A stretch of DNA of 64,000 bases from an uncultured virus (IMG/VR IMGVR_UViG_3300030330_004305) (Duplodnaviria; Heunggongvirae; Uroviricota; Caudoviricetes): the IMG/VR virus record IMGVR_UViG_3300030330_004305. One strand, written 5' to 3'. The notes beneath the pieces were generated by a model. That model searched no databases. It had not been told where the DNA came from and worked only from the letters and a program-made list of their open reading frames with translations. Below are positions 4,264 to 55,419 of this stretch, one piece after another; position 1 is the stretch's first letter; each line of letters starts with the position of its first letter. The translations under genes and the position numbers were made by a program.

Positions 4264-6192
4264 ATGAAACTGGAAACTGCACCACAAGACGTTACCATCA
4301 ATGGCGATTTTGAGCAGCGTGATGTTGCTATCGGTGACGTAGCTTTTATTCTTGATATGTTTGCAGACAAGGTGTACTCGCACAAGGAACGTGCAGTTAT
4401 CCGAGAGTTAGCGTGTAATGCACATGACTCTCACGTTATGGCAGGTACTACGGACGTACCATTTGAAGTACACTTGCCTACTCAGCTTGAGCCTTGGTTT
4501 TCCTTGCGTGACTACGGTACAGGTCTGCCAGACGATGACATCGCTAACATCTACGGTGCTATTGGGGTCAGCACCAAGCGTGACTCCAATGAAGTCATTG
4601 GTTGCTTTGGTATTGGTAGTCTGTCTCCATACTCTTTGTGTGATAGTTTTACTGTTAAAAGTTATCTTGATGGCATAGTTCGCACATACCAATGTATGCG
4701 TGATGCAAAGCGTCAACCAAAGGTCATACCTCTTGGGTCAGCACCTACGAACGAGGCTAATGGTTTGGAAGTCAAGCTCACTGTTGACGGTAAAATTTCA
4801 GAGTTTGAAAAAGAGGCAGCAAAGGTATTCATGTTCTGGGAAGGTACACTGCCAGAAATCAACAGTCAACAAGTGTCTCGCAAATGTCAAGACATGCGTG
4901 ATAGATATGTTTTTAAAGATGATGACTTTGGACTCACTCCATCATGGGGCGATATGTATGCTCTCATGGGCAATATCGCATACAAGATTCCGAGCGAGCT
5001 TGATGAATTTGACTGTGATGGTTATTTGAAGTTTGATCTCGGAGAACTAGAGTTTGATACTGCTCGCGAGAACCTGTCTATGACCGACAAGACCAAGGCA
5101 GCACTCAAGGCTAAGTTTGCGTCAGTAAAAGATAAGCTCACTGAGATTGCCATTGAGCAGATCGAAGCAGAGGATACTCCGTTCAAAAAAGCAGCACTCG
5201 CAGAGACTTTGAGTAAGGGTCAGATAGGCAGATTCGTAGGTCGCAAGAACCTAGAGGATTATGCACTACCCGAACCAGCAGAATCGGTGACGTACTGGCA
5301 GTCTAAATATCGTGGCAGCGAGAAGTATAATACCCATCAAATTGCTGCTATCGGAGATGTTAAATATTACTTACATAAAGATCGGATGACTACTCGTATC
5401 AGGTCATACCTAAAAGATATGAGTAATGGTCATACCATGTATATCTTCAAGGACTTGGCACAGGCACAGGAATGTAACATTCCAGTAGATATGCTAGAGG
5501 ACTTGGATGATCTGCCAAAAGTTCAGCGTGTGTCCTATGGAACAGTTAGCAAGTGTAAAACTTTAAGTTTCAACTCTAATGCTAGAGGTTGGGGTTACAA
5601 TGATGCTGATTATTGGTCTGAGACAGAGATCGAGCTTGATGGTTCAGAGATCGTCTATGTTGAGGTCAATCGTAACAAGCCTGTTTATACCGGAACGGAT
5701 GGTAGAGATGGCTGTAAATATACCCACAGTAATGGTCAGATCAATTCTACGCTTGCAACTGCCAAGGATCATATCGGTGAGATCGAATTGGTTGGACTCA
5801 AGACTGCTTTCCTAAAGACCGCAGCATTTCGTAAGGGTAACTTTATCCATCTGGATGATTACCTCAAGCGAGAGTACGCAAAGAAAGCACCTAAAACTTA
5901 CTTTGAGTATGAAGATGGTGATTTGGATACGTTTAAAACGATCAACGAATACATTGACAATGATGAGGTTCGTGAGATTGTTGAACTTGCAGACTCTTGC
6001 AAGAACGATGAGATTGCAGGCATCTGTCAGCGTCTTGGCGTTACTGTTGAGATAACCAAAGATACCATGCTGCAAGAGATGATGGACGAATGGAATGATC
6101 GTCATAAGATGTTGACGTTTGTTTCTGACTGGGATATCAGTAGGAATACACAGATCATCGCAGAATATATTTCAGGAAAAGTTAAAGATTAG
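4264..6192 (+). CDS. rIIA: rIIA-like protein with N-terminal GHKL (HSP90-like) ATPase
   Basis: VYSHKERAVIRELACNAHDSH, RDYGTGL, STKRDSNEVIGCFGIGS, ELEFDTARENLS; rIIB-like gene nearby. Confidence 0.85.
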   Translation: MKLETAPQDVTINGDFEQRDVAIGDVAFILDMFADKVYSHKERAVIRELACNAHDSHVMAGTTDVPFEVHLPTQLEPWFSLRDYGTGLPDDDIANIYGAIGVSTKRDSNEVIGCFGIGSLSPYSLCDSFTVKSYLDGIVRTYQCMRDAKRQPKVIPLGSAPTNEANGLEVKLTVDGKISEFEKEAAKVFMFWEGTLPEINSQQVSRKCQDMRDRYVFKDDDFGLTPSWGDMYALMGNIAYKIPSELDEFDCDGYLKFDLGELEFDTARENLSMTDKTKAALKAKFASVKDKLTEIAIEQIEAEDTPFKKAALAETLSKGQIGRFVGRKNLEDYALPEPAESVTYWQSKYRGSEKYNTHQIAAIGDVKYYLHKDRMTTRIRSYLKDMSNGHTMYIFKDLAQAQECNIPVDMLEDLDDLPKVQRVSYGTVSKCKTLSFNSNARGWGYNDADYWSETEIELDGSEIVYVEVNRNKPVYTGTDGRDGCKYTHSNGQINSTLATAKDHIGEIELVGLKTAFLKTAAFRKGNFIHLDDYLKREYAKKAPKTYFEYEDGDLDTFKTINEYIDNDEVREIVELADSCKNDEIAGICQRLGVTVEITKDTMLQEMMDEWNDRHKMLTFVSDWDISRNTQIIAEYISGKVKD

Positions 6193-6195
6193 GAC

Positions 6196-6223
6196 TTGAC
6201 TTTACCGATAAGTATGTTAAAAT
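6196..6223 (+). promoter_or_regulatory. early promoter
   Basis: TTGACT-TTACCGATAAGTATGT-TAAAAT. Confidence 0.7.
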
Positions 6224-6255
6224 CAAATAAATAACCAACCAAAATGGAGATTAGT

Positions 6256-6600
6256 ATGACTATGACTGCTAGTAAACCAAGAAAAAAAATAGAGAAAGCA
6301 CCTGTGCATGTAAAAGAAAAAAAGCCAACTATTCCAAATGATATTTTAAAAGTGTTTCTTGACCGAAATATTAACAAAGAAGATAATAAAAAAATCAATA
6401 TGGTAGTTGATGGATTTCTATGGCAACTAGGAAATATTCAACGATATAGAATAAATGTCTGGATGAAAGAACCAATAGACGGTATGTTTTGTGAAAGACA
6501 TTGGATAGGTTATAGTTGGTTTGTCCACTACGATGTAACCAATAAAACTTTAACTGATAAAAGTATTGCACCTAAACCAAAAAAAGAAAAGATTTTTTAG
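6256..6600 (+). CDS. hypothetical protein
   Basis: GGAG RBS; RYRINVW motif. Confidence 0.6.
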   Translation: MTMTASKPRKKIEKAPVHVKEKKPTIPNDILKVFLDRNINKEDNKKINMVVDGFLWQLGNIQRYRINVWMKEPIDGMFCERHWIGYSWFVHYDVTNKTLTDKSIAPKPKKEKIF

Positions 6601-6610
6601 CGTTTACCCC

Positions 6611-6638
6611 TTGACAATGGCAACTTTTAGGGTATAAT
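6611..6638 (+). promoter_or_regulatory. early promoter
   Basis: TTGACA-16 nt-TATAAT. Confidence 0.8.
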
Positions 6639-6670
6639 AAAGTAACCAATCACTTTTTAGGAGAATTAGG

Positions 6671-6856
6671 ATGAAGAATGTAGTTGTGGAAGTTCAAGAT
6701 GGTATTGTCACGGCAGTTTACTGTCCAGACGAAACTTATAATGTACACATCTTGGATTTAGATGATATGGAAGTAGAGCATGATCTTAATGTTCAACAAT
6801 ATTATCAAGATGTAGAACAAATTACCAATGAACTCGTTGACTGTACTTCACTTTGA
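6671..6856 (+). CDS. small acidic hypothetical protein
   Basis: AGGAG RBS; VVVEVQDGIVTAVY. Confidence 0.65.
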   Translation: MKNVVVEVQDGIVTAVYCPDETYNVHILDLDDMEVEHDLNVQQYYQDVEQITNELVDCTSL

Positions 6857-6871
6857 ATAAGGAACTCTAAT

Positions 6872-7714
6872 ATGCTTACGCACACAAAATCTAATGACAA
6901 TCACTGGACAGTTGTTCTTGATGGTCAACCGCATCAATTTGACCACACACACCCGCACTATTCAAGTCTTGTGGAATGTGTACACGCTGGAAATGCAACG
7001 GAATTTATTACAATTCTAAATACTGGTAGTGTTGTAGAGGACTGGTCAGAAGGTGACTTTGAGTTTCGGGACGGTTATCTGTATTTTGAAGAGGAGCAGG
7101 TTGCTAATGATCCTACAAGCCGTATTATTCAATGTATCCAGCAGGGTTTTCCTCACAAGCCTATGCTGAACTACCTGACTAATCTTTATGATAATGTCAG
7201 TGAGCGTGCGGTTCAGGAGTCTTATACTTGGTCTAGCCACAAAGGTTTGCCAATTACTGAAGATGGAATGATGGTTGGTTACAAAGGTGTTCGTCCTCAT
7301 GTTGGGGATACAATCAAAGTCAAGAATGGTGAGCTTGCAGAGGGTGATCTCGTTGACATTTACACTGGCAACACGTTTCGGAACAATGTGGGAGACAAGT
7401 GCAGCATGAAGCGTAGGCAAGTCTGTGATGACCATACGCAAGGGTGTTCCTCCGGTCTGCATGTGGGTACTTATGAGTACGCTTGTAATTGGGCAGGTAA
7501 CTCTGGAGTTGTTGTTCTTGTAAAGTTCAATCCAAAAGATATTGTTAGTGTTCCATCTGATTGTGAACATCAGAAATTGCGAGTTAGCGAATATGAAGTC
7601 ATCAATATCGCTCGTGAGCAACTAGAGGAAGCAGTATACTCAGATGAGGATGAAGATTCTTTAGAGTATTGGATGGATGTTGAAGATGATTATGAGTCAG
7701 AAGTAGATTTCTAA
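6872..7714 (+). CDS. rIIB: rIIB-like protein
   Basis: LPITEDGMMVGYKGVR, CSMKRRQVCDD, CSSGLHVG, VKFNPKDIVSVPSD are typical rIIB motifs. Confidence 0.85.
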   Translation: MLTHTKSNDNHWTVVLDGQPHQFDHTHPHYSSLVECVHAGNATEFITILNTGSVVEDWSEGDFEFRDGYLYFEEEQVANDPTSRIIQCIQQGFPHKPMLNYLTNLYDNVSERAVQESYTWSSHKGLPITEDGMMVGYKGVRPHVGDTIKVKNGELAEGDLVDIYTGNTFRNNVGDKCSMKRRQVCDDHTQGCSSGLHVGTYEYACNWAGNSGVVVLVKFNPKDIVSVPSDCEHQKLRVSEYEVINIAREQLEEAVYSDEDEDSLEYWMDVEDDYESEVDF

Positions 7715-8220: not shown

Positions 8221-8250
8221 GGGGGTTGAAACACACCCCCCTTTATTTTT
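8221..8250 (+). terminator. intrinsic terminator
   Basis: GGGGGT...ACCCCC hairpin then TTTATTTTT. Confidence 0.65.
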
Positions 8251-8253
8251 CAT

Positions 8254-8604
8254 ATGAAAGCAAAACCAAAAAGCTACGAAATAACTGTCAACTATATTTG
8301 CGACCACTGCAATAACGGTTTTAGTTTATATAACAGAGACATACCAACAATAAAAACTGAAAAAGTTAGATGTCCTGACTGTAGTGAAATGGTTTATATT
8401 GAACCTCTTGATATATTTATAGAGCCTAAAGCACCTGTAAAGTCTTGTAAAAAAATATTTCTTAAAACACTTAGGAATTATGGCTACTCATCTGAAGAAA
8501 TCAAGAGTATGCTTGTAAAAGCTAAGATAAATGATTTTCCAGAAGAAAAGTTATCTGTACTACTAAAACTAGCTTTGGCACAAGCAGGAGATTCAAATGA
8601 ATGA
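8254..8604 (+). CDS. Zn-ribbon protein fused to RuvA C-terminal (domain III)-like helical domain
   Basis: CDHC...CPDC; C-terminal LRNYGYSSEEIKSML...LSVLLKLALAQ resembles the RuvA-III pattern L..LGY...EA......LIR.AL; overlaps ruvB start. Confidence 0.6.
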   Translation: MKAKPKSYEITVNYICDHCNNGFSLYNRDIPTIKTEKVRCPDCSEMVYIEPLDIFIEPKAPVKSCKKIFLKTLRNYGYSSEEIKSMLVKAKINDFPEEKLSVLLKLALAQAGDSNE

Positions 8605-9490
8605 ATTAAGACCTTCTAATTTTGCTAATTTAATAGGTCAAGATAAATTAGTAAACTCACTTAATATCTCTGTGTTGTCTGCTAATAAAAGAAACGACTC
8701 ATTGAATCATTGTTTGTTTTCTGGCCCAGCAGGATTGGGAAAGACGACATTATCAAATGCACTAGCCAATGAGCTTGGTTCAGATATTCAAGTTGCCAAT
8801 GGTGCTAATCTTAGATCAATTAAAAATGTTATTCCATATCTAATGAGAGTAAATAATCGCTCTGTATTATTTATTGATGAAATACACAGGATGACAAAGT
8901 TAGTAGAAGAATTTTTATATCCTGTTATGGAAGATTTTAAAATAGATATGTCTGACGGAGAAGAGGTAATATCTGTCCAAATACCAAAGTTCACTCTGGT
9001 GGGTGCGACTACAGAGGCAGGTGTTTTATCTGCACCGCTTCGTGATAGATTCAAATTAAAATTTACTCTTGAATTATACGACGAGCTATCTTTGGCTACA
9101 CTGATTGAAAGTAATTCTAAAAAGTTAAAAATTGAAATGTCTGATGATGCTGTTTTTTCTCTTGCAAAAGCAAGCAGAGGAACTCCTAGAATTGCTAATG
9201 GGCTTTTGGAATGGGTACGCGACTACAGAATCGCAAAAGGTTTAAAAGTCATCACACAGAGCGATCTGGTAGCCTCACTATCTATGAGAGGCATACATAC
9301 GGATGGCTCAACCGAACAGGATCGTAAATATCTTAATTTCTTAAAAACTCAAAAAAATCCTGTTGGTCTTGATACAATAGTTTCTAGTATAAATGTAAAC
9401 AAAGATACAGTTCTTAATGTTATAGAACCTTTCCTGCTACAGTCAGGTAAAATTTTAAAAACTTCAAAAGGGAGAATGTCAAATGACTGA
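8597..9490 (+). CDS. ruvB: Holliday junction branch migration helicase RuvB
   Basis: LRPSNF..LIGQ, GPAGLGKTTL, FIDEIHR, FTLVGATT, LSAPLRDRF, SRGTPRIAN, IEPFLLQ. Confidence 0.95.
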   Translation: MNELRPSNFANLIGQDKLVNSLNISVLSANKRNDSLNHCLFSGPAGLGKTTLSNALANELGSDIQVANGANLRSIKNVIPYLMRVNNRSVLFIDEIHRMTKLVEEFLYPVMEDFKIDMSDGEEVISVQIPKFTLVGATTEAGVLSAPLRDRFKLKFTLELYDELSLATLIESNSKKLKIEMSDDAVFSLAKASRGTPRIANGLLEWVRDYRIAKGLKVITQSDLVASLSMRGIHTDGSTEQDRKYLNFLKTQKNPVGLDTIVSSINVNKDTVLNVIEPFLLQSGKILKTSKGRMSND

Positions 9491-9628: not shown

Positions 9629-9657
9629 TTGACAAATGACGACAAGTATGTTATACT
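9629..9657 (+). promoter_or_regulatory. early promoter for uvsE
   Basis: TTGACA-AATGACGACAAGTATGT-TATACT. Confidence 0.75.
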
Positions 9658-9691: not shown

Positions 9692-10645
9692 ATGTACAAT
9701 CTATGCTGTATCAGTAACGAACTCAAAGAGCAAGGCTACAAGTTTCAGACTATGACTTGGAAGCGTTTTAATCAACTGTGTGACGAGCATGGTGCAGAGT
9801 ACGCACTAGACCAGCTAGGACAGCGTTGGCTCAACAATGTAGAGGTAACTCGTTTGTGTATAGAACACTGCTCAGACAACGGTTGGGGTTATCGTGTATC
9901 GTCTGCATTGTTTCCATGTCTTACGCACCCAGAGTTTGAGTATCGTATCGAGAATGTACCTCAGTACGATCAGATTATGGAGGAGTTTCGTGACATCGTA
10001 TACTACAATGAGACTTGGAATGTGCGTCTATCTACCCATCCAGACCAGTTCAATGTCCTTGCATCAGAGAACCAGTCAGCAGTAGACAAGACCATCCGAG
10101 AACTCAACCATCACGGTTGGGTCATGGATATGTTAGGGTGCGAGCGTAGCTATTACAATCCGATCAACATTCATGTCAACTGCACCAAGGGCGAGCTATC
10201 AGATATTGCTGATCGCTTTATGTCCAACCTTGCCAAGTGCGATGAGTCAGTTACAAGTCGTCTTGTTATCGAGAACGAGGATAAAGGTTGCTGGAACGTA
10301 GACAACTTGCTTACACACTTCCGTCTGCCTATTACCTTTGACAACCTGCACGACAAGTGCAACCCGTCAGATACAGACTCAGACGCTTGTATGTACCAAT
10401 GTGCTGCTACTTGGAATGTCAGACCCCTGTTTCATTACAGCGAGAGTCACCCAGACAAGACTAACCAGCGTTCCCATGCAGACATGCCTACAGACTGTCC
10501 TGCTAGTGACGCATACGATTGGGACATCGAACTCAAGTCTAAAGATGCAGCGATTCGTGCTTGTGCTGAATTAGCTATTGCTAGTAAATTACAAATGCCA
10601 GCAATCCGAAAACAAGACGGGTCTTGGGAAATTATGGAGGTTTGA
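9692..10645 (+). CDS. uvsE: UV-damage endonuclease
   Basis: YRVSSALFP, RLSTHPDQFNVLAS, RLVIENED, TFDNLHD, HYSES, HAD, DIELKSKD. Confidence 0.92.
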   Translation: MYNLCCISNELKEQGYKFQTMTWKRFNQLCDEHGAEYALDQLGQRWLNNVEVTRLCIEHCSDNGWGYRVSSALFPCLTHPEFEYRIENVPQYDQIMEEFRDIVYYNETWNVRLSTHPDQFNVLASENQSAVDKTIRELNHHGWVMDMLGCERSYYNPINIHVNCTKGELSDIADRFMSNLAKCDESVTSRLVIENEDKGCWNVDNLLTHFRLPITFDNLHDKCNPSDTDSDACMYQCAATWNVRPLFHYSESHPDKTNQRSHADMPTDCPASDAYDWDIELKSKDAAIRACAELAIASKLQMPAIRKQDGSWEIMEV

Positions 10646-13280: not shown

Positions 13281-14120
13281 ATGAAGGTTTTATGGATTGC
13301 AGATTTTGGACTCCAGCATAATATAGGTGGGGCACAAAGGACAGACTCATTTGTAATACAAGAAGGCATTAACAGAGGTCATGAGATAGTTTTTCTAAAC
13401 TATGACACTCCAAGCGATGTCTTGAATGATACATATGATTTAGTAGTTACTGGAAACTTAGAAATAATTAGTCAGAGAAGACCTGATGTTTTTCAGTATT
13501 TATTAAATCATCCTAATCATGTAAGGTTTGAGCATGACTCAAATTCTTATTTGTCTCAAGATGCAAGAAAAGCATTATTTAATTCTACAAAAAAAACTAT
13601 CTTTCTGTCTGAATTTCATCATCAAACATTCGTACAGCTATATGGAAACATATTCAAAAATGTCGAGATAGTCAGACCTTTTATTGATTCAAAAGTATTT
13701 TATGATTTCCAACAGGAAAGAGAAGAAAAAACTTTATATGTTGGGTTTTTTCATTTCCTGAAAGGTACTGTAAAATTTTTGGACTTTGTTATCAACAATC
13801 CAGATAAGAAGTTCATAGTCGCCGGATGGGGCAACAAAGGGTTTGAAAACCATATAAAGTATTTGCACAATGTCGAGTACATAGGCAAAGTAGATCATGG
13901 TGAAATGCCAAAATTATTCAATAAATACAAAACCATGTATTATCATCCAGAAAAATTTGAGCCATTCTGTAGATCAGTAGGAGAAGCAATAATGTGTGGG
14001 ATGCAATTAGACGTAAGTGATAATATTGGTGCTTTTCATGATCTTCAAAAGTATGGCATAGAAGAATTAAGACAGATGTGTTCTGATTCTCCTAAGATTT
14101 GGTGGGACAAAGTTGAATAA
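13281..14120 (+). CDS. GT-B (GT4-like) glycosyltransferase
   Basis: IGGAQRT N-terminal motif; EPFCRSVGEAIMCG (E-X7-E). Confidence 0.85.
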   Translation: MKVLWIADFGLQHNIGGAQRTDSFVIQEGINRGHEIVFLNYDTPSDVLNDTYDLVVTGNLEIISQRRPDVFQYLLNHPNHVRFEHDSNSYLSQDARKALFNSTKKTIFLSEFHHQTFVQLYGNIFKNVEIVRPFIDSKVFYDFQQEREEKTLYVGFFHFLKGTVKFLDFVINNPDKKFIVAGWGNKGFENHIKYLHNVEYIGKVDHGEMPKLFNKYKTMYYHPEKFEPFCRSVGEAIMCGMQLDVSDNIGAFHDLQKYGIEELRQMCSDSPKIWWDKVE

Positions 14121-14169
14121 TACCGAGTATAATTTTATATGACGTGTTGTTTTATACCACTAAAAGGAT

Positions 14170-15045
14170 GTGAATATGAATGTTGGAGTTATTGGAAGAG
14201 GCTTTGTAGGCGGCTCAATAGAAAAGTTTTTGAAAACAAGAAGTAAATATTCTGTAAAATCTTATGATTTAAAAGATGATACAGATATGAATAATGCCTA
14301 CAGCAACATTGTAAACCGCAGCGATCTTATCTATGTCTGCGTTCCAACACCGATGGACTATCAAGGAAATTGTTATACTGATATAGTCAGAGGTTGTGTG
14401 CAACTCCTGAATTTCTATGCAGATGCACATAAAAAAAGACCTGTCGTTTTGTTAAAATCAACGATGGTTCCAAAGACCACAGAATCTTTTAAAAAAGAAT
14501 TTAAAAATCTAATCTTTGTAACTAATCCAGAATTTCTAACAGAAAGAACCGCATATGATGATTTGTGCAATAGTAAGTTTCATGTTATAGGTATTGATGA
14601 TTCTGAAACTGAGGCTAAAAAACTACTGCTTGATTATCATAACTCGATGTGGCCTGATTCTAAATCTATCTTTGTAACTAATACTCAGGCAGAGATGATA
14701 AAGTATCTTACCAATACTTATTTTTCTGTAAAAGTTTCTTTTGCCAATCACATCTATCAGCTTTGTCAAGCTATGGGAATGGATTACAAAACATTCATTG
14801 ACGCAGCTATAGAGTCAGACCCTAGACTTGGAGAGCTACACTGGAATGTTCCCGGCCCCGATGGTCTTATGGGGTTTGGTGGAAAATGTTTTCCAAAAGA
14901 CTTTAATGGAATGATTAAACTATTTGATGAAAATAATGTTAATTGTGAAATTTTAAAGATGATTTGGAAGTATAATGTAGATGTTAGGGGAGAAAATGAC
15001 TGGCAAAAAATTGAAGGTGCGGTGTGTCAAGAACAGGATCAATAG
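14170..15045 (+). CDS. UDP-glucose/GDP-mannose dehydrogenase family (short form lacking C-terminal domain)
   Basis: GVIGRGFVG, VCVPTP, KSTM, NPEFL, AEMIKY..NTY, GFGGKCFPKD. Confidence 0.9.
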   Translation: MNMNVGVIGRGFVGGSIEKFLKTRSKYSVKSYDLKDDTDMNNAYSNIVNRSDLIYVCVPTPMDYQGNCYTDIVRGCVQLLNFYADAHKKRPVVLLKSTMVPKTTESFKKEFKNLIFVTNPEFLTERTAYDDLCNSKFHVIGIDDSETEAKKLLLDYHNSMWPDSKSIFVTNTQAEMIKYLTNTYFSVKVSFANHIYQLCQAMGMDYKTFIDAAIESDPRLGELHWNVPGPDGLMGFGGKCFPKDFNGMIKLFDENNVNCEILKMIWKYNVDVRGENDWQKIEGAVCQEQDQ

Positions 15046-16031
15046 TATTTGCAACTAAATCTGGACTAGGCATACTAGCTAAAAATTTATATGAATCAAA
15101 AATAATAGATAAAGTCTTTATAGCTGGTCATCCTAAATTTGAATCTCATCCAGAATGGTACGACAGAAAAGATGTAGTTCTTTCCGAGAAGGAGCTTATT
15201 GATTCTGTCGATACCCTTTTTATATTGGAGGCTCCACTACCAGACCCATTCGATTGGTCTATAGTTGAGTTAGCACAATCTATGGGCAAGCGTGTTGTTC
15301 TTATGCCAATGTATGAGTCAACACCACGATCTCATCTTGTGTTTATGGATAAGATTATATGTCCATCTCTTCTTGATCTTGAATATTATGAAGATTATGA
15401 CTCATGCTTTATTCCCGTTCCATCGCCAACAGATGTAGAATGGAAATTAAGAGAGCGTGCAAATGTATTTGTTCACAATGTTGGGCATGGTGGAATATAC
15501 TCAAGGAATGGCACTGCTGAAATAATCAAAGCTCTGCCGTTGATAAAATCTCAAGATATAAAAATTATCATAAGAGTACAACCTGATGCCAACCCAGATA
15601 TAGCACAACTACTAGATAGTATATCGGATCACAGGGTTTCTATAGAAAAAAGACACGTTCCTTTTAAAGAACTGTGGTCTACGGGTGATGTGTTTTTATT
15701 TCCAGAGAAGTTCAATGGACTTTCTCTGCCTCTGCAAGAAGCCCATGCTGCTGGTATGCTCGTTATGGCAGGAGATCGCTCTCCAGTTAATACTTGGCTA
15801 CCAAAAGAACCACTAATACCTGTGTCTGGTTATTTTAATACAGAGCTTCCTTGGATTGGAATAAAAGTAAGAAATGCAATCATGTCTCCAGAAGATATAG
15901 CAAAGACTATTGACCAATGGGCTGGTAAAGATATTTCAGAATATTCAAAAATCGGACAGTCATGGGCATCTCAGAACACTGGAGATTTACTAAGAGAAAA
16001 ATATTTGGAGCAATTATATGTCAGAAAATGA
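15024..16031 (+). CDS. GT-B glycosyltransferase
   Basis: DVFLFPEKFNGLSLPLQEAHAAG. Confidence 0.8.
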   Translation: MSRTGSIVFATKSGLGILAKNLYESKIIDKVFIAGHPKFESHPEWYDRKDVVLSEKELIDSVDTLFILEAPLPDPFDWSIVELAQSMGKRVVLMPMYESTPRSHLVFMDKIICPSLLDLEYYEDYDSCFIPVPSPTDVEWKLRERANVFVHNVGHGGIYSRNGTAEIIKALPLIKSQDIKIIIRVQPDANPDIAQLLDSISDHRVSIEKRHVPFKELWSTGDVFLFPEKFNGLSLPLQEAHAAGMLVMAGDRSPVNTWLPKEPLIPVSGYFNTELPWIGIKVRNAIMSPEDIAKTIDQWAGKDISEYSKIGQSWASQNTGDLLREKYLEQLYVRK

Positions 16032-16599
16032 ATTTTGGACAGATCCATCAGAGCAAGAATTTCTTATGAGCTATGTAAATTCAGAAACAGATCTTCTTGA
16101 ATATGGTTCGGGAAGTTCAACTCTTGTTTTACAAGATAAAGTAAAAAAACTTGTATCTGTAGAACACCATGAAGGTTGGTACAATGAACTTAAACCAAAA
16201 CTTAATTCAAATGTATTGTATATTTACGCACCACCAGATAATTTAGACTGGGAAAATCAATACTCTATAGTAAACAATGATAGTATTCGGAAAAATACAG
16301 CAGGCGATGATGGAACATTTGAAGATTTTAATACTTATGTAATGTCACCAAATGGTTGGGGTAAATTTGATATTGTTTTCGTAGACGGTAGAGCTAGAGC
16401 AGCGTGTGCTTGGTTCGCTACATCCCTTTTGAAAGATGAAAACAGTAGAATATTTATACATGATTTTGGTCCTGAGACAAAGCACCCACACCTACCATAT
16501 AGAACATACTATGACATTGTAAATAATTTCCTAGAAGAAGAAGATCATGTGAAAACAATGTATTGCTTTAAGGCAAAAAATGAAAATATATATAATTGA
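16018..16599 (+). CDS. class I SAM-dependent methyltransferase (polysaccharide O-methyltransferase-like)
   Basis: LLEYGSGSST, SVEHH, FDIVFVDGRAR, IFIHDF. Confidence 0.85.
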   Translation: MSENEFWTDPSEQEFLMSYVNSETDLLEYGSGSSTLVLQDKVKKLVSVEHHEGWYNELKPKLNSNVLYIYAPPDNLDWENQYSIVNNDSIRKNTAGDDGTFEDFNTYVMSPNGWGKFDIVFVDGRARAACAWFATSLLKDENSRIFIHDFGPETKHPHLPYRTYYDIVNNFLEEEDHVKTMYCFKAKNENIYN

Positions 16600-17563
16600 T
16601 GCTTTTTTTTATAAAAATAGCAACCCTAATGATAAACAATATTGCATACAAAATTCAGGATATCAATGGATTTCTGGTTTATTTGATAGTTTTGAAAAAT
16701 TTTTTGAGGTTACTTCTAACCCATCAGAAGCTGATATAATAATACAACTATGTCATGAAGAATATGCAAAACATATGTACTGTCCTGATCCGAATTGTTC
16801 TGGCGGCTGCGGTAATCCAAAAGTTCCAACTTTTTTCAAAATGGAATACTTTATGAAAGTTTATGGCTCAACAAAAAAGTATGCATTTTACATATGGGAT
16901 TTATATTCTTGGGCCTTTCGTAGCAATTCATTAGGACATGCAAATGGAGGCAGTTGGTTTTGGGAAAGATTAAAACAAGTTTGTAAAAATTGTGATTATG
17001 TATTTGTTCCTAACTATGGAACTAAGGTTAGTGTTGATCAATATTGTAACATAAAATCTAAAGTATTAAAACCATTCACAAGATTTTTTGAAGAGAAAAA
17101 TATCCAAGATAATAATTATGTTGCTATAGCACAACGTAGATACGTTTTAGATCATACTGAAAAATGGCTTGTGTCAGCACTTAAAGAGTTGAATATACCT
17201 TACATAGCTAGTTATGATCATGAAACATTTTTTAAAGATTCAAATAATTTTAAAAAACTTTTGACTGATTGCTCGTTTATTGTATCTGCAAAGTTTGAGG
17301 TATCGACTGGTGGAATCTCTTTGCTTGAAGCATACAATTGCGGAAAGCCTGTTTTAATTTCAGATTCAAAATTTAATGGTGCAAACGATATATTCGGAGA
17401 TAGGGCTTTTAAATTTAAATATTATTCATATGAACATCTTAAAGAATGTTTAAATTATTTATGGAAAACTCGCCCAAAACTTGATATGGAAGAGTGTAAA
17501 AACTTTTGTAAACAATTCACATCCGATGCTATGGTAAAAAGAATTTATGAGGTCGTAAAATGA
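16580..17563 (+). CDS. GT-B glycosyltransferase
   Basis: EVSTGGISLLEAYNCGKPVLISD; paralog of 19878..20744. Confidence 0.8.
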   Translation: MKIYIIDAFFYKNSNPNDKQYCIQNSGYQWISGLFDSFEKFFEVTSNPSEADIIIQLCHEEYAKHMYCPDPNCSGGCGNPKVPTFFKMEYFMKVYGSTKKYAFYIWDLYSWAFRSNSLGHANGGSWFWERLKQVCKNCDYVFVPNYGTKVSVDQYCNIKSKVLKPFTRFFEEKNIQDNNYVAIAQRRYVLDHTEKWLVSALKELNIPYIASYDHETFFKDSNNFKKLLTDCSFIVSAKFEVSTGGISLLEAYNCGKPVLISDSKFNGANDIFGDRAFKFKYYSYEHLKECLNYLWKTRPKLDMEECKNFCKQFTSDAMVKRIYEVVK

Positions 17564-18450
17564 AGATATTATACATAGCTAAACATGGCCAACAAAATAA
17601 TGATGATGAAGGTTCAATATATAAATCATTGACTTTATTGGGACATAAAGTTGATAGATTTCAGTTAAATTATTTCAAAACAGATAAGCCGATATTAGAT
17701 AATATCAGTAAGCATTATGATTTTGCTTTGTTTCATAAACTTCCAGATGCAGATTATGTAGAATATGTCTGTAATAAATGGAAGGGTATATGTTGGTATT
17801 TTGATGCTGTTGGTAAGGGATTTGATAGTAATGACGACTATGTTAATTTAGTTAAAGATTATTTTTACATCGGATTTTTTACGGATGGTGATTTTGTTAA
17901 TAGTCAGAACAAAAATAATGTAAAACTTTTGAGACAAGGTTTAGACTTAGTTGATGATAACAATGTATTTGTTCCTAATGTAGCATACAGATTAGGTGCT
18001 AAACCAATACCTTTTATTTTTATTGGAACTATTGGTCATGGTGGATATTTAGAGCGAGAACAATATCTTGAGAAACTTCAAAATGATTTTATAGGATGGA
18101 GACCACACAACAAGTATGATATTTTTAAAGAACACCTATCCTCTGTTTGCCGACAAACTAAAATTATGCTTGCAATGCCACCAGCTACTGATCACTACTG
18201 GTCTAATCGTGTTTACTTACTAGGAGGAAGAAGTGCTTTTGTTCTTCATCCATATTCTTCTGAATTACAAAAACAATTTGGGGATAGTATGGCTTTTTAT
18301 AAAGACTATGAAGAGCTAAAAGAAAAGATAGATTATTTTTTAGTAAACCATGAAGAAAGGCAAAGTATGTCACAAAAAGCACACAGTATCATAATCAATG
18401 AACATTCCTATTTAAATAGATGTTCTGATTTAATTAAGGAGATACAATGA
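17560..18450 (+). CDS. CgeB-like glycosyltransferase
   Basis: YWSNRVYLLGGRSAFVLHP; ELKEKIDYFL...HSYLNR. Confidence 0.8.
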   Translation: MKILYIAKHGQQNNDDEGSIYKSLTLLGHKVDRFQLNYFKTDKPILDNISKHYDFALFHKLPDADYVEYVCNKWKGICWYFDAVGKGFDSNDDYVNLVKDYFYIGFFTDGDFVNSQNKNNVKLLRQGLDLVDDNNVFVPNVAYRLGAKPIPFIFIGTIGHGGYLEREQYLEKLQNDFIGWRPHNKYDIFKEHLSSVCRQTKIMLAMPPATDHYWSNRVYLLGGRSAFVLHPYSSELQKQFGDSMAFYKDYEELKEKIDYFLVNHEERQSMSQKAHSIIINEHSYLNRCSDLIKEIQ

Positions 18451-19337
18451 AAATACTATATATTGCAAAACATGGCCAGTCAAATAACGACGATGAAGGT
18501 TCAATATACAAAGGTCTTACTCTTCATGATTGTAGTGTTGATAAATTTGATTTAGTATCATTTGAAGACGATAAAAAACATCTTGATAAAATAGATGAAG
18601 CATATGATTATGTTTTATTTCATAAACTTCCATGTGAAGATTACGTAGAATATGTCTGCAATAAGTGGGATGGTATTTGCTGGTACTTTGATCCAATAAA
18701 TAAAGGTTTTCCATTAAACGATAAATATGTATCCATGATAAAGGATAATATTAAAATTGGTTTTTTTACAGATGGCGATTTTGTAAAAAAAGAAAACAAA
18801 GAAAACCTAAGAATACTAAGGCAAGGTCTCGATGATTGTGTGCCAACATGGTCAGATTCAAACAGAGTAAAAGATTTTTCTTTTATTGGAACAACATGCC
18901 CTAAGAAAAATTGTAGTTGTGGATATAGCACAAGATCAAATTACATAACAAGGCTGCAATCTGATTTTAAAAACTGGAAACCAGACATTACAAATATATA
19001 CTGGAAAGAATCTCTTACCAAGGTTTGCCATTTAAATAAAATCATGCTTGCGATGCCGCCAGCCACTGATCTTTACTGGTCAAATAGACTTTATGTTTTG
19101 GCGGGCAGGGGTGCTTTTGTATTACACCCAGAGTCTTACGAGTTAAAAAAACAGTTTGGTGAAAATTTAGCAATGTATAAAAATTATGAAGAACTAAAAG
19201 ATAAAATAAATTATTACATCAATAACCATGAAAAAAGAAATAATATGGCTAAAAAATGTCAAAGTATAATTGTAAATGAACATTCTTATTTCCATAGATG
19301 CAAAGAATTGTCGGAGATTTTAAATGAATACAGATAG
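18447..19337 (+). CDS. CgeB-like glycosyltransferase, tandem paralog of previous gene
   Basis: Same MKILYIAKHGQ.NNDDEGSIYK start and YWSNR motif; same length. Confidence 0.8.
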   Translation: MKILYIAKHGQSNNDDEGSIYKGLTLHDCSVDKFDLVSFEDDKKHLDKIDEAYDYVLFHKLPCEDYVEYVCNKWDGICWYFDPINKGFPLNDKYVSMIKDNIKIGFFTDGDFVKKENKENLRILRQGLDDCVPTWSDSNRVKDFSFIGTTCPKKNCSCGYSTRSNYITRLQSDFKNWKPDITNIYWKESLTKVCHLNKIMLAMPPATDLYWSNRLYVLAGRGAFVLHPESYELKKQFGENLAMYKNYEELKDKINYYINNHEKRNNMAKKCQSIIVNEHSYFHRCKELSEILNEYR

Positions 19338-19881
19338 AAATAAATTAGTAGATACATCTGAATTTTGGAAACAAAGAATAGATGATTCTAAAACAAGCGG
19401 AGATATAAGACACTCTGTTTTTAAAGCACCAGAACAAGAATGGCAAAAGGTTTGTAAAGATCATAAAGATATAATTAAAAAAACATTAAAGAAAAAATTT
19501 TTTAAAGGAAGAGTATATGACATACTAGATGCTGGGTGTGCATACGGAAGAGGTATTGATTTACTTCCAAAAGACTGGTCTGGCAGATACGTTGGAATAG
19601 ACCAATCTCAAGATTTTATAAATTTAGCAGAATCTAAATATCCAGATTATGAATTTTATTGTGAAAACCTAAAATATTTGCCGTTTGAAGACAATGAGTT
19701 TGATGTGGCAATATGTACCAGTGTTATGATTATGGTCGTTCAAAATTTAGGGTGGTTTGAATGGGAAAAAATACAAAACGAATTGCTTAGAGTTTCTAAA
19801 TGTATTCTATGCCTTGAATATGGAACAACAGATACAGCTACCGCATCATCTACATTTTATACAATAGGCGATCTATCATGA
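19324..19881 (+). CDS. class I SAM-dependent methyltransferase
   Basis: ILDAGCAYGRG, YVGIDQS, LPFEDNEFDVAI. Confidence 0.88.
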   Translation: MNTDRNKLVDTSEFWKQRIDDSKTSGDIRHSVFKAPEQEWQKVCKDHKDIIKKTLKKKFFKGRVYDILDAGCAYGRGIDLLPKDWSGRYVGIDQSQDFINLAESKYPDYEFYCENLKYLPFEDNEFDVAICTSVMIMVVQNLGWFEWEKIQNELLRVSKCILCLEYGTTDTATASSTFYTIGDLS

Positions 19882-20744
19882 AAATATTTGCATTTTGGAC
19901 AGGTGCTCCTTACATGAAAAGCATCTTAGAAGAGTTTGACAAACAAGGCCATGAAATAACAGATAGGCCATCAGAAGATTGTGATCTACATATATGTTTG
20001 CAGATGGGCGATCAAAATACACACAATGCACTTATTGACATCAAAAAAAGATTTCCAGACGTTCCATTTTTTACTTATGTATGGGACTGTTATGAATGGA
20101 TTACGAACCCTAGACATGATAGAGGTTATGATTGGTCTGGACTCGGCAGAGTTTGCAATATAAGTGAAAAAGTATTTGTTCCTTCTGAGGGGCAACGATA
20201 CAGATGTTTACAACATTGGGGAGTTGGTTTGGAAAAAACAAAATCAATACCCGCATACGCACCATTTTTTGAGCACCAAGCGTCAGACCTTGATTATGTT
20301 TGCGATCCACTTAGGGCGATCCCAGATAGACATGCTGGATGGGCAGAACGTGCTTGTTCAGAACTAAACATTCCGTATCAGCATGGAGGAAGAGGCAAAG
20401 ATAAAACCATAAAAGATTGGGATGAGTATAAACAATGGATTGCTAACTCTTCATTTGTAATATGTCCGTGGTATGAAGCTTCAACAGGAGGAATGTCTCT
20501 GGTCGAGGCGTATTACATAGGCAAAGAGGTTTTAATATGCAATTCTCCGTATATGGGTGCAAAAGATTACTTTGGAGATCGTGCAAACTATTTTGAGCCA
20601 ACATATGAATCAATGAAAGAATCACTGCAAAAAATGTGGGAAGAAAGACCATCAAGATATTCTTTAAAAGATAGAAGGAAATTTTGTGAAAGATTTAGCC
20701 TAGAAAATTTTTGCAAGAATATAATAAAGGAAATTGACAAGTGA
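19878..20744 (+). CDS. GT-B glycosyltransferase
   Basis: EASTGGMSLVEAYYIGKEVLI. Confidence 0.8.
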   Translation: MKIFAFWTGAPYMKSILEEFDKQGHEITDRPSEDCDLHICLQMGDQNTHNALIDIKKRFPDVPFFTYVWDCYEWITNPRHDRGYDWSGLGRVCNISEKVFVPSEGQRYRCLQHWGVGLEKTKSIPAYAPFFEHQASDLDYVCDPLRAIPDRHAGWAERACSELNIPYQHGGRGKDKTIKDWDEYKQWIANSSFVICPWYEASTGGMSLVEAYYIGKEVLICNSPYMGAKDYFGDRANYFEPTYESMKESLQKMWEERPSRYSLKDRRKFCERFSLENFCKNIIKEIDK

Positions 20745-21334
20745 AAAAGGTATGCATTGCATCATCCAGAGAGATAGGATCTAGATGTACAGAATGGGCT
20801 AAGTCAAACATGCCTGATGGGTTTGAGTTAGGATCTATAGAAGATTGTGAAATATTCATATCAACTCTTTACGATACTCTGATAGATAAAAAGTTCATTG
20901 AATCTAAAGAAAGATGTGTAAACTTTCATCCGGGTATTCTTCCAGACTATAGAGGGGCAGGAGCATATAGCTGGTCATTAATAAATAAAGAAAAACATAC
21001 AGGCGTAAGTCTTCATGTCATAGATCACAACATTGATAGTGGTCCTATAATTCAAATAAGAAAAACATTGATATATCCAAGCGATACATCTCAATCTTTG
21101 TATGAAAGATGTATGGATTTATTGTTTGATATGTTCAAGAAAAACTTTAATAAGATACTAAAAGGTACATATAAAACAAAGCCTAACAATGGTGGTAACA
21201 TCTATTTTAGAAAAGACCTTGAGGATGCAAAAGATATATCGCATATAATAAAAGCATTTACTTTTGACAATAAAGAATCTGCCTACTACTACAATAAAAG
21301 TGGCAAAAAAATATATATAGAATACGGAGAATAA
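20741..21334 (+). CDS. sugar N-formyltransferase
   Basis: NFHPGILPDYRG, GVSLHVIDHNIDSGPII. Confidence 0.88.
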   Translation: MKKVCIASSREIGSRCTEWAKSNMPDGFELGSIEDCEIFISTLYDTLIDKKFIESKERCVNFHPGILPDYRGAGAYSWSLINKEKHTGVSLHVIDHNIDSGPIIQIRKTLIYPSDTSQSLYERCMDLLFDMFKKNFNKILKGTYKTKPNNGGNIYFRKDLEDAKDISHIIKAFTFDNKESAYYYNKSGKKIYIEYGE

Positions 21335-21335
21335 C

Positions 21336-22466
21336 ATGGACCCCACACTAAATAAATCAGCAGAAAAATTGATTTGGGTTGCCGAGCCACAAATCGGAAA
21401 AGAAGAAGAAGCGGCATTAACAAGATGTATAACAAATGACTGGATTTCTCAAGGTCCAAGAGTAGCTGAATTTGAAGATGCAGTAGCTAAAACTTGTGGC
21501 AAAAAATACGGATCTGCTTGTAATTCAGGAACTACAGCATTGCATCTGGCACTTCATGTTGCTGATGTGAAAGAGGGTGACGATGTTGTTATACCTAATC
21601 TGACTATGGTTGCTTTGGGAAACTCTGTTCTGCTCGCTGGTGCTAATCCAGTTTACTGTGACTCAGATCCTGAATCTGATGTTGGAAATATTTCTTTAAA
21701 TAAAATTAAAGAAGTGATCACTCCTAAAACTAAAGCAGTAATTGTTGTTCATACTTATGGAGAACCCGTTACTGATATACAAGATATTGTAGATTACTGT
21801 GATTCGTTCAACATCAAAGTAATCGAAGATTGTGCTGAGTCACACTTTGCTACATTAGATGGTAAACCCGTAGGATCTTTCGCTGAACTTGCCATATTTA
21901 GTTTTTATTCTAACAAGAATATTACAACTGGCGAAGGCGGTATGATTGTAACAGATTGCAAAGAAGTCAAAGATAGACTTGACAGAGTAAGAATGCACGC
22001 ATTTACTCCCGGAAAACATTTTTGCCATACCGAAAGAGCGTTTGGCTATAGAATGACAGACATGCAGGCCAGCATCGGTCTTGAACAACTTAAAAAGGCA
22101 GATGCATTTATGGAGAAAAGAAGAAAAATTAGGACATTTTATGAATGGATGCTTAAAAATTCTCACATGAATATTGCAAGAAGAAGTGTCCCAACAGAAA
22201 ATTCTGGAGTTTGGGTTATGCCTATACTTACAGACTCTGAACAAAAAAGAGACGATATTAGACAGCACATAGCAAATTATGGAATTGATTCAAGAACATA
22301 TTTTCAGCCCATGAGTGAGCAATCTTTTTTGAGGTCTTATGCCACCTCTGACTATCCTATATCTGCTAGTCTTGCTAGATGCGGTTTCTACGTTCCTCTG
22401 TATCCTAAACTATCAGAATCTGACGTAGAATATATTGTGGACAAACTGAACTCGTATGGAGATTAA
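21336..22466 (+). CDS. DegT/DnrJ/EryC1/StrS aminotransferase (perosamine synthase-like)
   Basis: NSGTTALHLAL, IEDCAES, FSFYSNKNITTGEGGM, GYRMTDMQASIG. Confidence 0.93.
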   Translation: MDPTLNKSAEKLIWVAEPQIGKEEEAALTRCITNDWISQGPRVAEFEDAVAKTCGKKYGSACNSGTTALHLALHVADVKEGDDVVIPNLTMVALGNSVLLAGANPVYCDSDPESDVGNISLNKIKEVITPKTKAVIVVHTYGEPVTDIQDIVDYCDSFNIKVIEDCAESHFATLDGKPVGSFAELAIFSFYSNKNITTGEGGMIVTDCKEVKDRLDRVRMHAFTPGKHFCHTERAFGYRMTDMQASIGLEQLKKADAFMEKRRKIRTFYEWMLKNSHMNIARRSVPTENSGVWVMPILTDSEQKRDDIRQHIANYGIDSRTYFQPMSEQSFLRSYATSDYPISASLARCGFYVPLYPKLSESDVEYIVDKLNSYGD

Positions 22467-27985: not shown

Positions 27986-28674
27986 TGGGGACTAGTTATA
28001 ATCCTTCCATAATAACTGACGGGCTGGTACTCTGCTTGGATGCTGCTAATAAAAGAAGTTATCCGGGTGCGGGTACTGTGTGGACTGACTTGAAGGAAAG
28101 TAATAATGGAACGCTAACCAATGGTCCCACTTTCAGTTCTGATAATGGTGGAAGTATAGTTTTTGATGGAACTGATGATTATGTAGACTTGGGTAGTAGT
28201 CTTTCTATAAGTACATCTTCTCCCTTTTCTGTAGAATTTTGGAGTAACTTGAGTTCATACGCTGGTTATTATCCTACTATTTTACAATTAAAAACCAATA
28301 CAAGTCAGGGATGGAATATATCGTTTAGTCAACAAAGTAATTATAACGGTATAGTATTTGGTTCTGCAAGTACTTGGAGTAGAATAAAAACTGATAATCC
28401 TCCATCTGTAAATGTCTGGAATCATGTATGCGTTACTTATGATACATCTAATTATTTTATTTATTTGAATCTTGCCCTGCAAAATCAGTCTTCTGCTGGG
28501 AATTTTCAAGTCACTACTCAAAATAATTATATCGGAAGTGCTAATGCTGCTTCAAGGGGTGCAATGGATACTTGGGATGGTTATATATCTAATGTTAAAG
28601 TTTACAATAAGTTACTTACATTTGAACAAATAAGACAAAACTACAACGCAACAAGAGGGAGGTATCAACTATGA
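27985..28674 (+). CDS. LamG/concanavalin-A-like domain protein
   Basis: GLVLCLDAANKRSYPG, FDGTDDYV, WNHVCVTYD, QIRQNYNA. Confidence 0.82.
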   Translation: MGTSYNPSIITDGLVLCLDAANKRSYPGAGTVWTDLKESNNGTLTNGPTFSSDNGGSIVFDGTDDYVDLGSSLSISTSSPFSVEFWSNLSSYAGYYPTILQLKTNTSQGWNISFSQQSNYNGIVFGSASTWSRIKTDNPPSVNVWNHVCVTYDTSNYFIYLNLALQNQSSAGNFQVTTQNNYIGSANAASRGAMDTWDGYISNVKVYNKLLTFEQIRQNYNATRGRYQL

Positions 28675-29903
28675 AAAGAAGAGATTTTATAAAGTTAGGA
28701 GTAGGTACATATGCATTCGGAAATGTTACAGCGACTATCGCAGACGATAAGCAGACTGACGATCCAGCAGTATTGTTCCTTTTTCTTGGTGGTGGGGCTA
28801 GTCATATTGAGACTTTTAATCCTATACCTCTTGCTCCTGCTGACAGGAGATCTGTAACTGGCGATATAAAAACAAATGTTGCTGGAATAGAATTGGGTGG
28901 CCTTTTTAAAGAGCTTTCAAAACGCACAAATAAAATAGTTATACCTAGAGCTTTTGGTCACAGAGATCAAAATCACGCATCTGCCGTTCATTGGGTTGTA
29001 ACTGGAGAAGCAAATTTTGGTGCTGGAACAAGTTCTAAATGGCCTAGCTATGGATCTATGATGAGCAAACATCATGGTGTAAATACAGACGATGGACTTC
29101 CTACATATGTAAAACTAGGAAAGTATGATCATAATGGTGCAGCTTGGTTAGGCGGTAAATATACTGGGTTCGATGCAACCAAAGAGGGTAGAAAAGACCT
29201 ACAACTGATGCGTAAAAGTGAAGATTTTAAAACAAGAATTAATGTTTTAAATGTCATAGACAATAGTTTTAAAGCAAAAGATCAACAATTAGCTAAGGAC
29301 TGGAGAGATTTACGTAATCAATCAGTAGATATTATTCTTGGAAATGGATCAAAGGCATTCAGGGTAGAAGAAGATAAAGATTACAATAAATTTAAAGAAG
29401 CTACGCTTGGACAAGATGCACTTACTGCAATTAGATTGCTAGAAGCTGGCTCTAAATTTGTATCATTAAGCTATGGAGGCTGGGATATGCACCAAAATAT
29501 TGGCCAGTCACTCCAGACAAAACAAGCAGAGTTAGACCATTACTTAGCAAAAATAATGGATACTTTAGAATCAAGAGGTCTATATGAAAGAGTTATGCTA
29601 ATTGTAACATCTGAATTTGGAAGAACCCCCAAAGTAAACCAAAATCAAGGTCGTGATCATTTTGGCAAACTAGCACCCCTCATGATTAGTTGTGGATCAT
29701 ATGAAATGGGAAGAACGATTGGATCGTCAAGTCCAAATGCAGACGATGTTGAAGATGGTCGCTGCACTCCAGAAGATTTAGCTTGGACTATATACGATCA
29801 TCTTAATATGAATAGAACATCTAGATATACAGCTACAGATGGTAGACCCCACAATATAGTGAAAGATGATGCTAAGAATATATTGAAAGATATTCAAGCA
29901 TAA
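28671..29903 (+). CDS. DUF1501 family protein with Tat signal
   Basis: MKRRDFIK; FLFLGGGASHIETF, GWDMH, SEFGRTP, GRDH. Confidence 0.88.
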   Translation: MKRRDFIKLGVGTYAFGNVTATIADDKQTDDPAVLFLFLGGGASHIETFNPIPLAPADRRSVTGDIKTNVAGIELGGLFKELSKRTNKIVIPRAFGHRDQNHASAVHWVVTGEANFGAGTSSKWPSYGSMMSKHHGVNTDDGLPTYVKLGKYDHNGAAWLGGKYTGFDATKEGRKDLQLMRKSEDFKTRINVLNVIDNSFKAKDQQLAKDWRDLRNQSVDIILGNGSKAFRVEEDKDYNKFKEATLGQDALTAIRLLEAGSKFVSLSYGGWDMHQNIGQSLQTKQAELDHYLAKIMDTLESRGLYERVMLIVTSEFGRTPKVNQNQGRDHFGKLAPLMISCGSYEMGRTIGSSSPNADDVEDGRCTPEDLAWTIYDHLNMNRTSRYTATDGRPHNIVKDDAKNILKDIQA

Positions 29904-53596: not shown

Positions 53597-54023
53597 AAAA
53601 AGAACTGAAAAAAGTAAATACCCATCACGTTACTCTCCTAACGGGTGGGTACATGCTGCTCAATATATCACAGAACTGATCTGTGAGAAGAAAGCACAAA
53701 TTGATAAAAAAGAACTCCCACTAAAATTTTGGGAGTTAAAAGAGTGGCTAAAATTCTATAGATATCAAATCACATTGGCCAACAAACTCATAAAAGAGTA
53801 TGGAGAACATGTGATAATATCTGCTTTAAGAGACAAGAGAATGTGGAAGACATATTCTTTAAGAAGTCCTTTTTTAAAAAATGTAATCGAAGAGTATAAA
53901 AATAAACAGGAATTGGCTATGAAAATAGCTAAAGAAGTTGAATATGATTTCTCAGAGAAGAAAACATTTGAATCTAGTAACAAGAAAAAATCAATCATAT
54001 CAAAACTTAGGGATTTAGAATGA
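53589..54023 (+). CDS. hypothetical replication-module protein
   Basis: AAQYITELIC; YSLRSP; coupled to recA. Confidence 0.6.
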   Translation: MAKKRTEKSKYPSRYSPNGWVHAAQYITELICEKKAQIDKKELPLKFWELKEWLKFYRYQITLANKLIKEYGEHVIISALRDKRMWKTYSLRSPFLKNVIEEYKNKQELAMKIAKEVEYDFSEKKTFESSNKKKSIISKLRDLE

Positions 54024-55012: not shown

Positions 55013-55419
55013 AAATAAAAGATTTGTATGGCAATATTTCTTCTTGGAAAATAAGTGGAGATATAGTTACTGCCAAAGATAATCGTTCTAGATCTAAGCT
55101 TCATACTCAAGCCAGAAAGATTTTATATGAGCTATTTCCAACTATGCAAATTCTGGAAGAAGTTTCAATTAAACCAAGAGGCTCTAAAACTCAGTATCTA
55201 GATTTTTATATTAATCAAATTAAATTAGCAGTAGAAGTTCATGGTCAACAGCATTATAAATTTAATACTATGTTTCATGCATCTGCACAAGATTTTTTAA
55301 ATCAAAGAAAAAATGATGCTGATAAAAAAGACTGGTGTGATTTAAATAATATAACATATGTCGAGCTTGCTTACAATGAAAAGGCAGAGGAATGGAAAAA
55401 GAAAATTCAGGACCGCTAG
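55009..55419 (+). CDS. Vsr/DUF559-like endonuclease
   Basis: YLDFYI..KLAVEVHGQQHY, D..KKDWC..NNI. Confidence 0.8.
   Translation: MKIKDLYGNISSWKISGDIVTAKDNRSRSKLHTQARKILYELFPTMQILEEVSIKPRGSKTQYLDFYINQIKLAVEVHGQQHYKFNTMFHASAQDFLNQRKNDADKKDWCDLNNITYVELAYNEKAEEWKKKIQDR

Follow-up and report, generated by a model that had tools for sequence, protein, structure and literature searches.

The stretch of DNA analysed here (64,000 nt, hereafter the window) belongs to a large tailed-phage genome and carries an overlapping pair of genes on its plus strand. The first (8254-8604, +) encodes a protein of 116 aa, which we call mini-RuvA, made of a zinc ribbon and a RuvA domain III (D3); the second is ruvB (8597-9490, +), encoding an AAA+ motor of 297 aa. 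As read from the sequence, the two genes share 8 nt, and the segment holding the mini-ruvA stop and the ruvB start (8586..8604, +) includes a Shine-Dalgarno-like AGGAGA that lies within the mini-ruvA tail, 5 nt 5' of the ruvB ATG, an arrangement from which we infer translational coupling from mini-ruvA to ruvB. The initial annotation had described a small gene of this length with a CxxC...CxxC pattern overlapping the ruvB start, and the ORF bears this out: the overlap, the cysteine motif (C16-x2-C19 and C40-x2-C43) and the C-terminal helical motifs that had been quoted are all present. Immediately 5' of mini-ruvA, a consensus scan placed an intrinsic-terminator-like hairpin followed by a T run (8221..8250, +), which may separate the pair from the gene upstream; the signal is weak, with two such hairpins in the scan against 0.9 +/- 0.9 in shuffles. 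Further upstream lie an rIIA-like gene (4264-6192, +; PHROG 612, E 2e-100) and an rIIB-like gene (6872-7714, +; PHROG 609, E 5e-52), a recurring neighbourhood (4264..7714), with rIIB-like ORFs seen by eye upstream in related loci too. Just 3' of ruvB is a gene for a UvdE UV-damage endonuclease (9692-10645), preceded by a near-consensus sigma-70 promoter (9629-9657; 11/12, extended -10), and the window also has a sigma-70-like factor, a DUF1501 gene and replication genes recognised in the ORF list.

That the C-terminus of mini-RuvA is a homologue of RuvA domain III, as the initial annotation had proposed, is confirmed by sequence profile and predicted fold. This three-helix region, the RuvB-docking module, spans residues 61-116 (8434..8604, +) and follows a linker that is very short in this phage. 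Taken alone, the protein is not significant against Pfam RuvA_C (E 0.074, 14 bits versus a cut-off of 24); the match becomes significant once relatives are included, with RuvA_C (PF07499) matched at E<=0.1 by 8 of 18 family members and at 8e-6 by the best. A profile made from an 18-row alignment of these relatives found chain A of 1IXS, the D3 chain of a RuvA-RuvB complex, as its best natural match in the PDB (E 1.2e-4), followed by more RuvA chains lower down; designed repeat proteins heading the list were set aside, their scores being summed weak repeats. The alignment leaves out P0005, a 634-aa Cys-rich repeat protein that was dropped from the family as matching the zinc part only. An AlphaFold2 model of mini-RuvA (pLDDT 87) has RuvA D3 domains as its top three structural matches among 48,161 chains (VIA Z 6.1, 6.1 and 5.7), and with 7pbp_G (Z 6.1, rmsd 1.9) 48 of 48 residues are aligned. 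UBA domains, named beforehand as the generic alternative, rank under all three RuvA rows (Z 4.8-4.9). A Z of 6.1 lies within reach of helical bundles by common arrangement, and the margin over UBA is weak alone, but the sequence search also favours RuvA. With Foldseek, the full model had no match in the PDB at E<=0.001. Among 80 cellular ruvB loci, a profile of the phage D3 alone matched the end of an ORF in 14, 11 of these ORFs being 194-215 aa long and taken as full RuvA by size and position; a profile of the zinc part alone matched none of the 80.

Residues 1-60 (8254..8433, +) form a C4 zinc ribbon between two long beta-strands (about 3-15 and 46-58). As had been suggested, the ribbon stands in place of the junction-binding domains of RuvA: there is no RuvA_N OB domain, and 116 aa leave no room for the HhH domain II, of which Pfam gave no match. 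The four cysteines, together with G77, are unchanged in 66 of 66 aligned family members. After the cysteines, the best-conserved feature of the domain is the alternating pattern of hydrophobic residues on the two flanking strands (positions 8, 10, 12, 14, 47, 49, 52, 54 and 56, hydrophobic in 85-100% of 66 rows). Two copies of residues 1-60 modelled with zinc scored 0.68 (runs 0.72, 0.55 and 0.68) against 0.04 for the best control; in calibration, which is only roughly valid here, 20 of 30 true pairs reached the mark used to judge this score, as did 1 of 23 single chains. The models have 120-126 contacts, at least 95% of which agree between runs, and a pLDDT of at least 86. In them, strand 3-15 runs antiparallel to its twin around residue 10 and strand 52-58 pairs with its own twin, so that the predicted interface consists of the most conserved hydrophobic strands. 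Judging from these models, the N-terminal domain is probably a dimerisation module forming a strand-paired homodimer.

The ribbon resembles those of ZitP and GltJ (AgmX) (PDB 2NB9 and 7ZOK; Pfam Zn_ribbon_4) in its C4 two-knuckle build and similar spacing. The likeness is weak (7zok against the family profile, E 1.4e-4; ZitP against the model, Z 4.6), the Pfam match is under cut-off, and mini-RuvA differs in its extra flanking strands, which form the predicted dimer. An assignment to that family was not borne out by the isolated domain: neither ZitP nor GltJ appeared in the top 50 rows once it was folded alone, residues 1-60 then retrieved generic zinc ribbons only (best Z 4.2), and Foldseek against BFVD returned nothing at E<=0.001. 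Across the family, the net charge of the N-terminal domain ranges from -5 to +11, so universal DNA binding by it is unsupported. It is basic in most freshwater members, in which DNA binding is possible, and neutral to acidic in window-type proteins (-4 in P0001, the near-twin of the window's mini-RuvA, -4 in L005 and -3 in L057). The linker between ribbon and D3 varies too, at 0-62 residues.

The partner of mini-RuvA is, by its sequence, an intact RuvB. Pfam finds RuvB_N (E 1e-49), AAA_lid_4 and RuvB_C, all above cut-off, and in the PDB it matches 3pfi (E 2e-70). Residues K49, T50, D94, E95, T139, R151, R198 and R293 are unchanged in 58 of 58 phage rows; we take them to be those of Walker A/B, sensor I, the Arg finger and sensor II, motifs that the protein carries along with a winged helix. 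The hydrophobic helix 3 and the PS1 beta-hairpin are also kept, the latter with its hydrophobic positions 116, 118, 127 and 129, about 4 residues shorter than in bacterial RuvB and without the bacterial tip motif. In a midpoint-rooted FastTree of 100 rows, 20 phage RuvBs fall on one side of a branch with support 100 and 80 cellular ones on the other, planctomycete sampling being thin at two rows. These two rows, L197 and L200, are the nearest cellular RuvBs in the tree and, of the 80, they alone have the PYL signature that phage RuvB carries in helix 3. The L197/P0133 cluster is labelled Pirellulales/Planctomycetaceae; as the nearest sampled cellular RuvB it differs from the phage protein in its sequence (44% identity), its place in a ruvC-ruvA-ruvB run with a full RuvA, and its retention of the longer hairpin. 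No additional RuvB of the window clade came from a scan of viral contigs, and the lone match from a scan of genome contigs was a 29%-identical ATPase outside that clade. INPHARED held no close member either: 34 records matched, and the 30 listed reach at most 43% identity. We found no cultured member of these phages.

The mini-RuvA family is widespread. A word-index search with the single protein gave the near-twin as the only true match of 5 candidates, an exhaustive search gave 15 candidates, and a cut-off of E<=1e-5 adds at least 118 clusters. The Atlas look-alikes are viral clusters, and in one of these 50% of the members have RuvA_C. Mini-ruvA lies beside ruvB in 72 of 87 viral ruvB loci, so that the linkage to ruvB, whose absence the initial annotation had named as one ground for refutation, recurs in relatives; these loci include the best 80 of 176 from a second search, one contig counted twice and a few that helped to build the profile. 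Where the ruvB ORF is whole, in 69 related loci, the two genes are -46 to +4 nt apart, and overlap is retained in both clades of the family. The gene directly upstream differs between the two clades. In the freshwater clade this position is taken by a conserved gene (L004:3210-3626 and equivalents) for a protein of about 135 aa whose C-terminus is winged-helix-like (HTH_56, E 0.003); the gene remains where mini-ruvA has been lost, and the window clade has another gene there.

A full ruvA was not found in these phages. The mini-ruvA ORF is the sole D3 match among 724 six-frame segments of the window, exactly one D3 match occurs in 13 of 17 records, and full planctomycete RuvA had no true match in the 17, of which 6 are at least 90% complete; a weak match in G008 was an unrelated 537-aa coiled protein. 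RuvA_N (PF01330) and RuvC (PF02075) were each absent from 5 of 5 related records (3 of them at least 90% complete), against 10 of 14 and 8 of 14 controls recovered, and no RuvC was found among 150 of the 151 called ORFs of G007, a complete 131-kb relative with terminal repeats. The earlier statement that the window lacks ruvA and ruvC thus stands in part: for a second D3-bearing ORF it holds throughout the window, and for RuvA_N and RuvC it holds as far as the related records reach, among them the near-identical G001, which begins past ruvB and covers most of 11196-64000. G007 encodes, among the 150 ORFs scanned, a UvsX/RecA-like recombinase, DnaB, a primase, a split DNA polymerase, a terminase and an ERCC4-type nuclease adjoining the terminase. 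The window has a RecA-like ORF followed by a small PD-(D/E)XK-like nuclease at 54020-55419 (DUF559, E 0.015; compare L092:13639-14115). Both nucleases are candidate resolvases where RuvC is absent.

Mini-ruvA is a dispensable accessory, since 15 of 87 loci have no copy next to ruvB and the complete genome G002 has RuvB without D3. The best D3 match in G002 is partial (E 0.048), which makes the loss real in that phage. A quick IQ-TREE phylogeny of 58 phage RuvBs needs 10 gain/loss changes, 7 of them forced by strong branches, to account for the 13 that have no adjacent mini-ruvA; change counts as low as this were reached by 42-43 of 500 shuffles. We read the tree as repeated loss. By eye, the docking-surface residues of RuvB are the same with or without mini-ruvA and give no signal of covariation. 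This is compatible with RuvB relying on the RuvA of the host or acting free of RuvA, and it weakens the case for an obligate partnership.

Among the six rows of the window RuvB clade, four have the zinc form, and two (G003 and G004) have elsewhere a protein with a hydrophobic helix, a Pro-rich linker and a D3. In G003 this gene (L088:1498-1944, minus strand) lies directly 3' of rIIB, about 17 kb from ruvB, and matches RuvA_C above cut-off (29.5 bits). The G004 candidate (L120:10113-10565, minus strand), about 9 kb from ruvB beside SSB-like and glycosyltransferase-like genes, is weaker: it has no Pfam match and a hydropathy of only 1.54, although its 11.1 bits were equalled in 0 of 500 shuffles. 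From these sequences, one sister phage carries what appears to be a membrane-anchored D3, and the other probably does likewise. The G003 type has 9 relatives (P0195-P0203) and occurs in 3 viral loci; genes of this helix, Pro/Lys-rich linker and D3 family (L105:3995-4357 is another) directly follow rIIB. In 7 of the 8 membrane D3 proteins examined, a helix of hydropathy 2.5-3.0 is followed by 4-8 basic residues, a positive-inside topology. This family scores 27-37 bits on a profile of cellular D3 versus 19-30 bits on the zinc-form profile, and is thus nearer to cellular RuvA D3 than the zinc form, whose near-twin member P0001 is far from it (9.1 bits). All Atlas matches of the membrane form were below 0.9. 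Since both forms carry D3, the domain is modular in these phages.

What does a D3 without its RuvA do? The reading we prefer, and to which we give an even chance, is that mini-RuvA acts as a dimeric, bivalent clamp, loading phage RuvB and activating it with no platform to grip a junction. Two zinc-ribbon domains would pair through their long strands and display two D3 domains. Each D3 would engage one phage RuvB subunit at its helix 3 and PS1 hairpin, the two sites being adjacent in a single ring or lying one in each of two head-to-head rings. Such docking would promote the assembly of RuvB on phage DNA and a faster nucleotide cycle, and RuvB would then drive branch migration or fork remodelling in phage recombination and repair without the junction-specific platform; being accessory, mini-RuvA could be dispensed with, RuvB working alone or with host RuvA. 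We infer binding of D3 to RuvB from homology and linkage, and the activation and the DNA substrate are likewise presumed. PMC9477746 describes two D3 domains on the neighbouring RuvB subunits D and E, the second of these D3 domains acting as nucleotide exchange factor; the accessible part of PMC4677358 confirms the contact of D3 with the hairpin, and that of bioRxiv 2022.09.22.509074 describes RuvB alone on DNA as hexamers and head-to-head dodecamers. A dimer with two D3 domains fits both geometries, which is why we favour it. It also accords with the D3 homology in sequence and fold, the overlapping linkage to ruvB, the single D3 gene in most records with no full RuvA in the six near-complete ones, the dimer model on the most conserved strands, and the docking elements kept in phage RuvB. 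Against it, the tie of D3 to the junction-bound RuvA core forms the fulcrum of the lever (PMC9477746), so that a free dimer would be unanchored except by bridging rings or by binding something else. RuvBs without mini-ruvA also keep the same docking residues, and the D3 assignment has the limits in single-sequence score and Z given above.

The need of the lever for a fixed anchor (PMC9477746) speaks for a second reading, the adaptor that the initial annotation had proposed and in our view unlikely, in which the zinc-ribbon dimer binds DNA (junctions or forks) or a phage protein, and so replaces the RuvA platform or redirects RuvB. The basic N-terminal domain of most freshwater members would suit it, as would three positions (4, 34 and 37) at which 73-79% of 66 rows have Lys and the weak likeness to the ribbons of GltJ and ZitP, which bind proteins according to PMC11135422. 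But window-type domains are neutral to acidic, the isolated domain resembles generic ribbons only, no conserved partner gene accompanies it, the upstream gene differing between clades, and its best-conserved surface is the predicted homodimer interface. Rather less plausible is a competitor, which the initial annotation had also raised, or a switch: an unanchored D3 that sequesters RuvB from the RuvA of the host. It would either stop host RuvABC from acting on phage DNA or prevent phage RuvB from associating with host RuvA. The PYL signature common to planctomycete and phage RuvB makes cross-binding plausible, and the membrane form scores on the cellular D3 profile as a decoy might. However, mini-ruvA is apparently coupled to the phage's own intact ruvB, the window-type D3 is far from cellular D3, and the phage hairpin is without the bacterial tip motif. 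The bivalent clamp and these two readings are not fully exclusive of one another.

The membrane-helix proteins bring in the matter of anchoring more directly. It is quite unlikely, though conceivable, that D3 is a detachable handle for RuvB with an exchangeable tie (the zinc-ribbon dimer in most phages, a membrane helix in some) and that RuvB serves not as a Holliday-junction motor but as an anchored dsDNA pump that, inside planctomycete cells, reels in phage DNA or positions it against a membrane or a protein scaffold. To the proposal that D3 tethers RuvB to a cell structure and thereby makes it an anchored DNA pump, directly in the membrane-helix variants and via a membrane protein for the zinc ribbon, we accord little probability. 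Both window-clade phages without an adjacent zinc form carry the helix, linker and D3 protein (clear in G003, weak in G004), and the relatives and topology of the G003 type point the same way; yet just two fragmentary genomes link the membrane form to RuvB, at a distance of 9-17 kb, no membrane partner is known for the zinc form, and the complete G002 has RuvB and no D3. That mini-RuvA is a functionless, decaying leftover from a captured ruvAB operon is scarcely credible: the gain/loss changes that the RuvB tree forces, at least 7 in number, would suit it, but the invariant cysteines and G77, cores conserved at 16-41% identity in 66 sequences and the ruvB overlap kept in both clades largely refute it.

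RuvA is thought to hold the junction open and to operate the RuvB motor via domain III. With domains I and II absent, mini-RuvA would act like the motor-operating half and is no RuvA; the family naturally splits these two jobs. The phage system shares with bacterial RuvA-RuvB (PDB 1IXS/1IXR, 7PBL series and 7X7Q; PMC9477746) a RuvB whose catalytic motifs are complete, a three-helix D3 bundle attached by a linker and a small gene directly 5' of ruvB. It differs in that bacterial RuvA is a tetramer of about 200 aa per chain with OB and HhH junction-binding domains, whereas mini-RuvA has neither and is a predicted dimer of 116-aa chains; no RuvC was found, the PS1 hairpin is shorter and the partner gene has apparently been lost repeatedly. 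Junction processing by RuvC-, endo VII- and RusA-type resolvases of jumbo phages is similar in being a phage-encoded recombination function, and in the accessible text of PMC7824862 the jumbo-phage RuvC is not coupled to a RuvB-like ATPase. A term search of the available text of PMC9127768 and PMC6802176 found no discussion of phage RuvB. Our literature search, with subscription papers and supplements outside its scope, found no description of the module. Phage-encoded RuvB is, to our knowledge, unusual, and mini-RuvA with RuvB is a real, widespread and apparently undescribed variant of RuvAB. With a dimer of 116-residue chains one can ask directly if two tethered D3 domains suffice to drive the nucleotide cycle of RuvB, and if the lever model requires a fulcrum that is bound to a junction. 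The membrane-anchored variant hints at a possible reuse of the motor.

Genes with DUF1501 are enriched in Planctomycetota. Together with the affinity of the phage RuvB, this suggests that the host is probably a planctomycete. The DUF1501 gene of these phages has a Tat-like leader (28671-29903 in the window, L105:4421-5674 and L003:4992-6266), is often near rIIB or ruvB and is likely host-derived. In many freshwater relatives, ruvB is followed on its 3' side by a small membrane protein and an actin-like ORF (L013:2405-3728, L021:3882-5205 and L075:4261-5556). The complete relative G007 has an rIIB-like gene (L001:2107-3174) and no rIIA match among its 150 scanned ORFs. Lastly, a long series of ORFs in the window (13281-22466), by eye glycosyltransferase-, methyltransferase-, formyltransferase- and sugar-aminotransferase-like, possibly serves glycosylation of DNA or virion.
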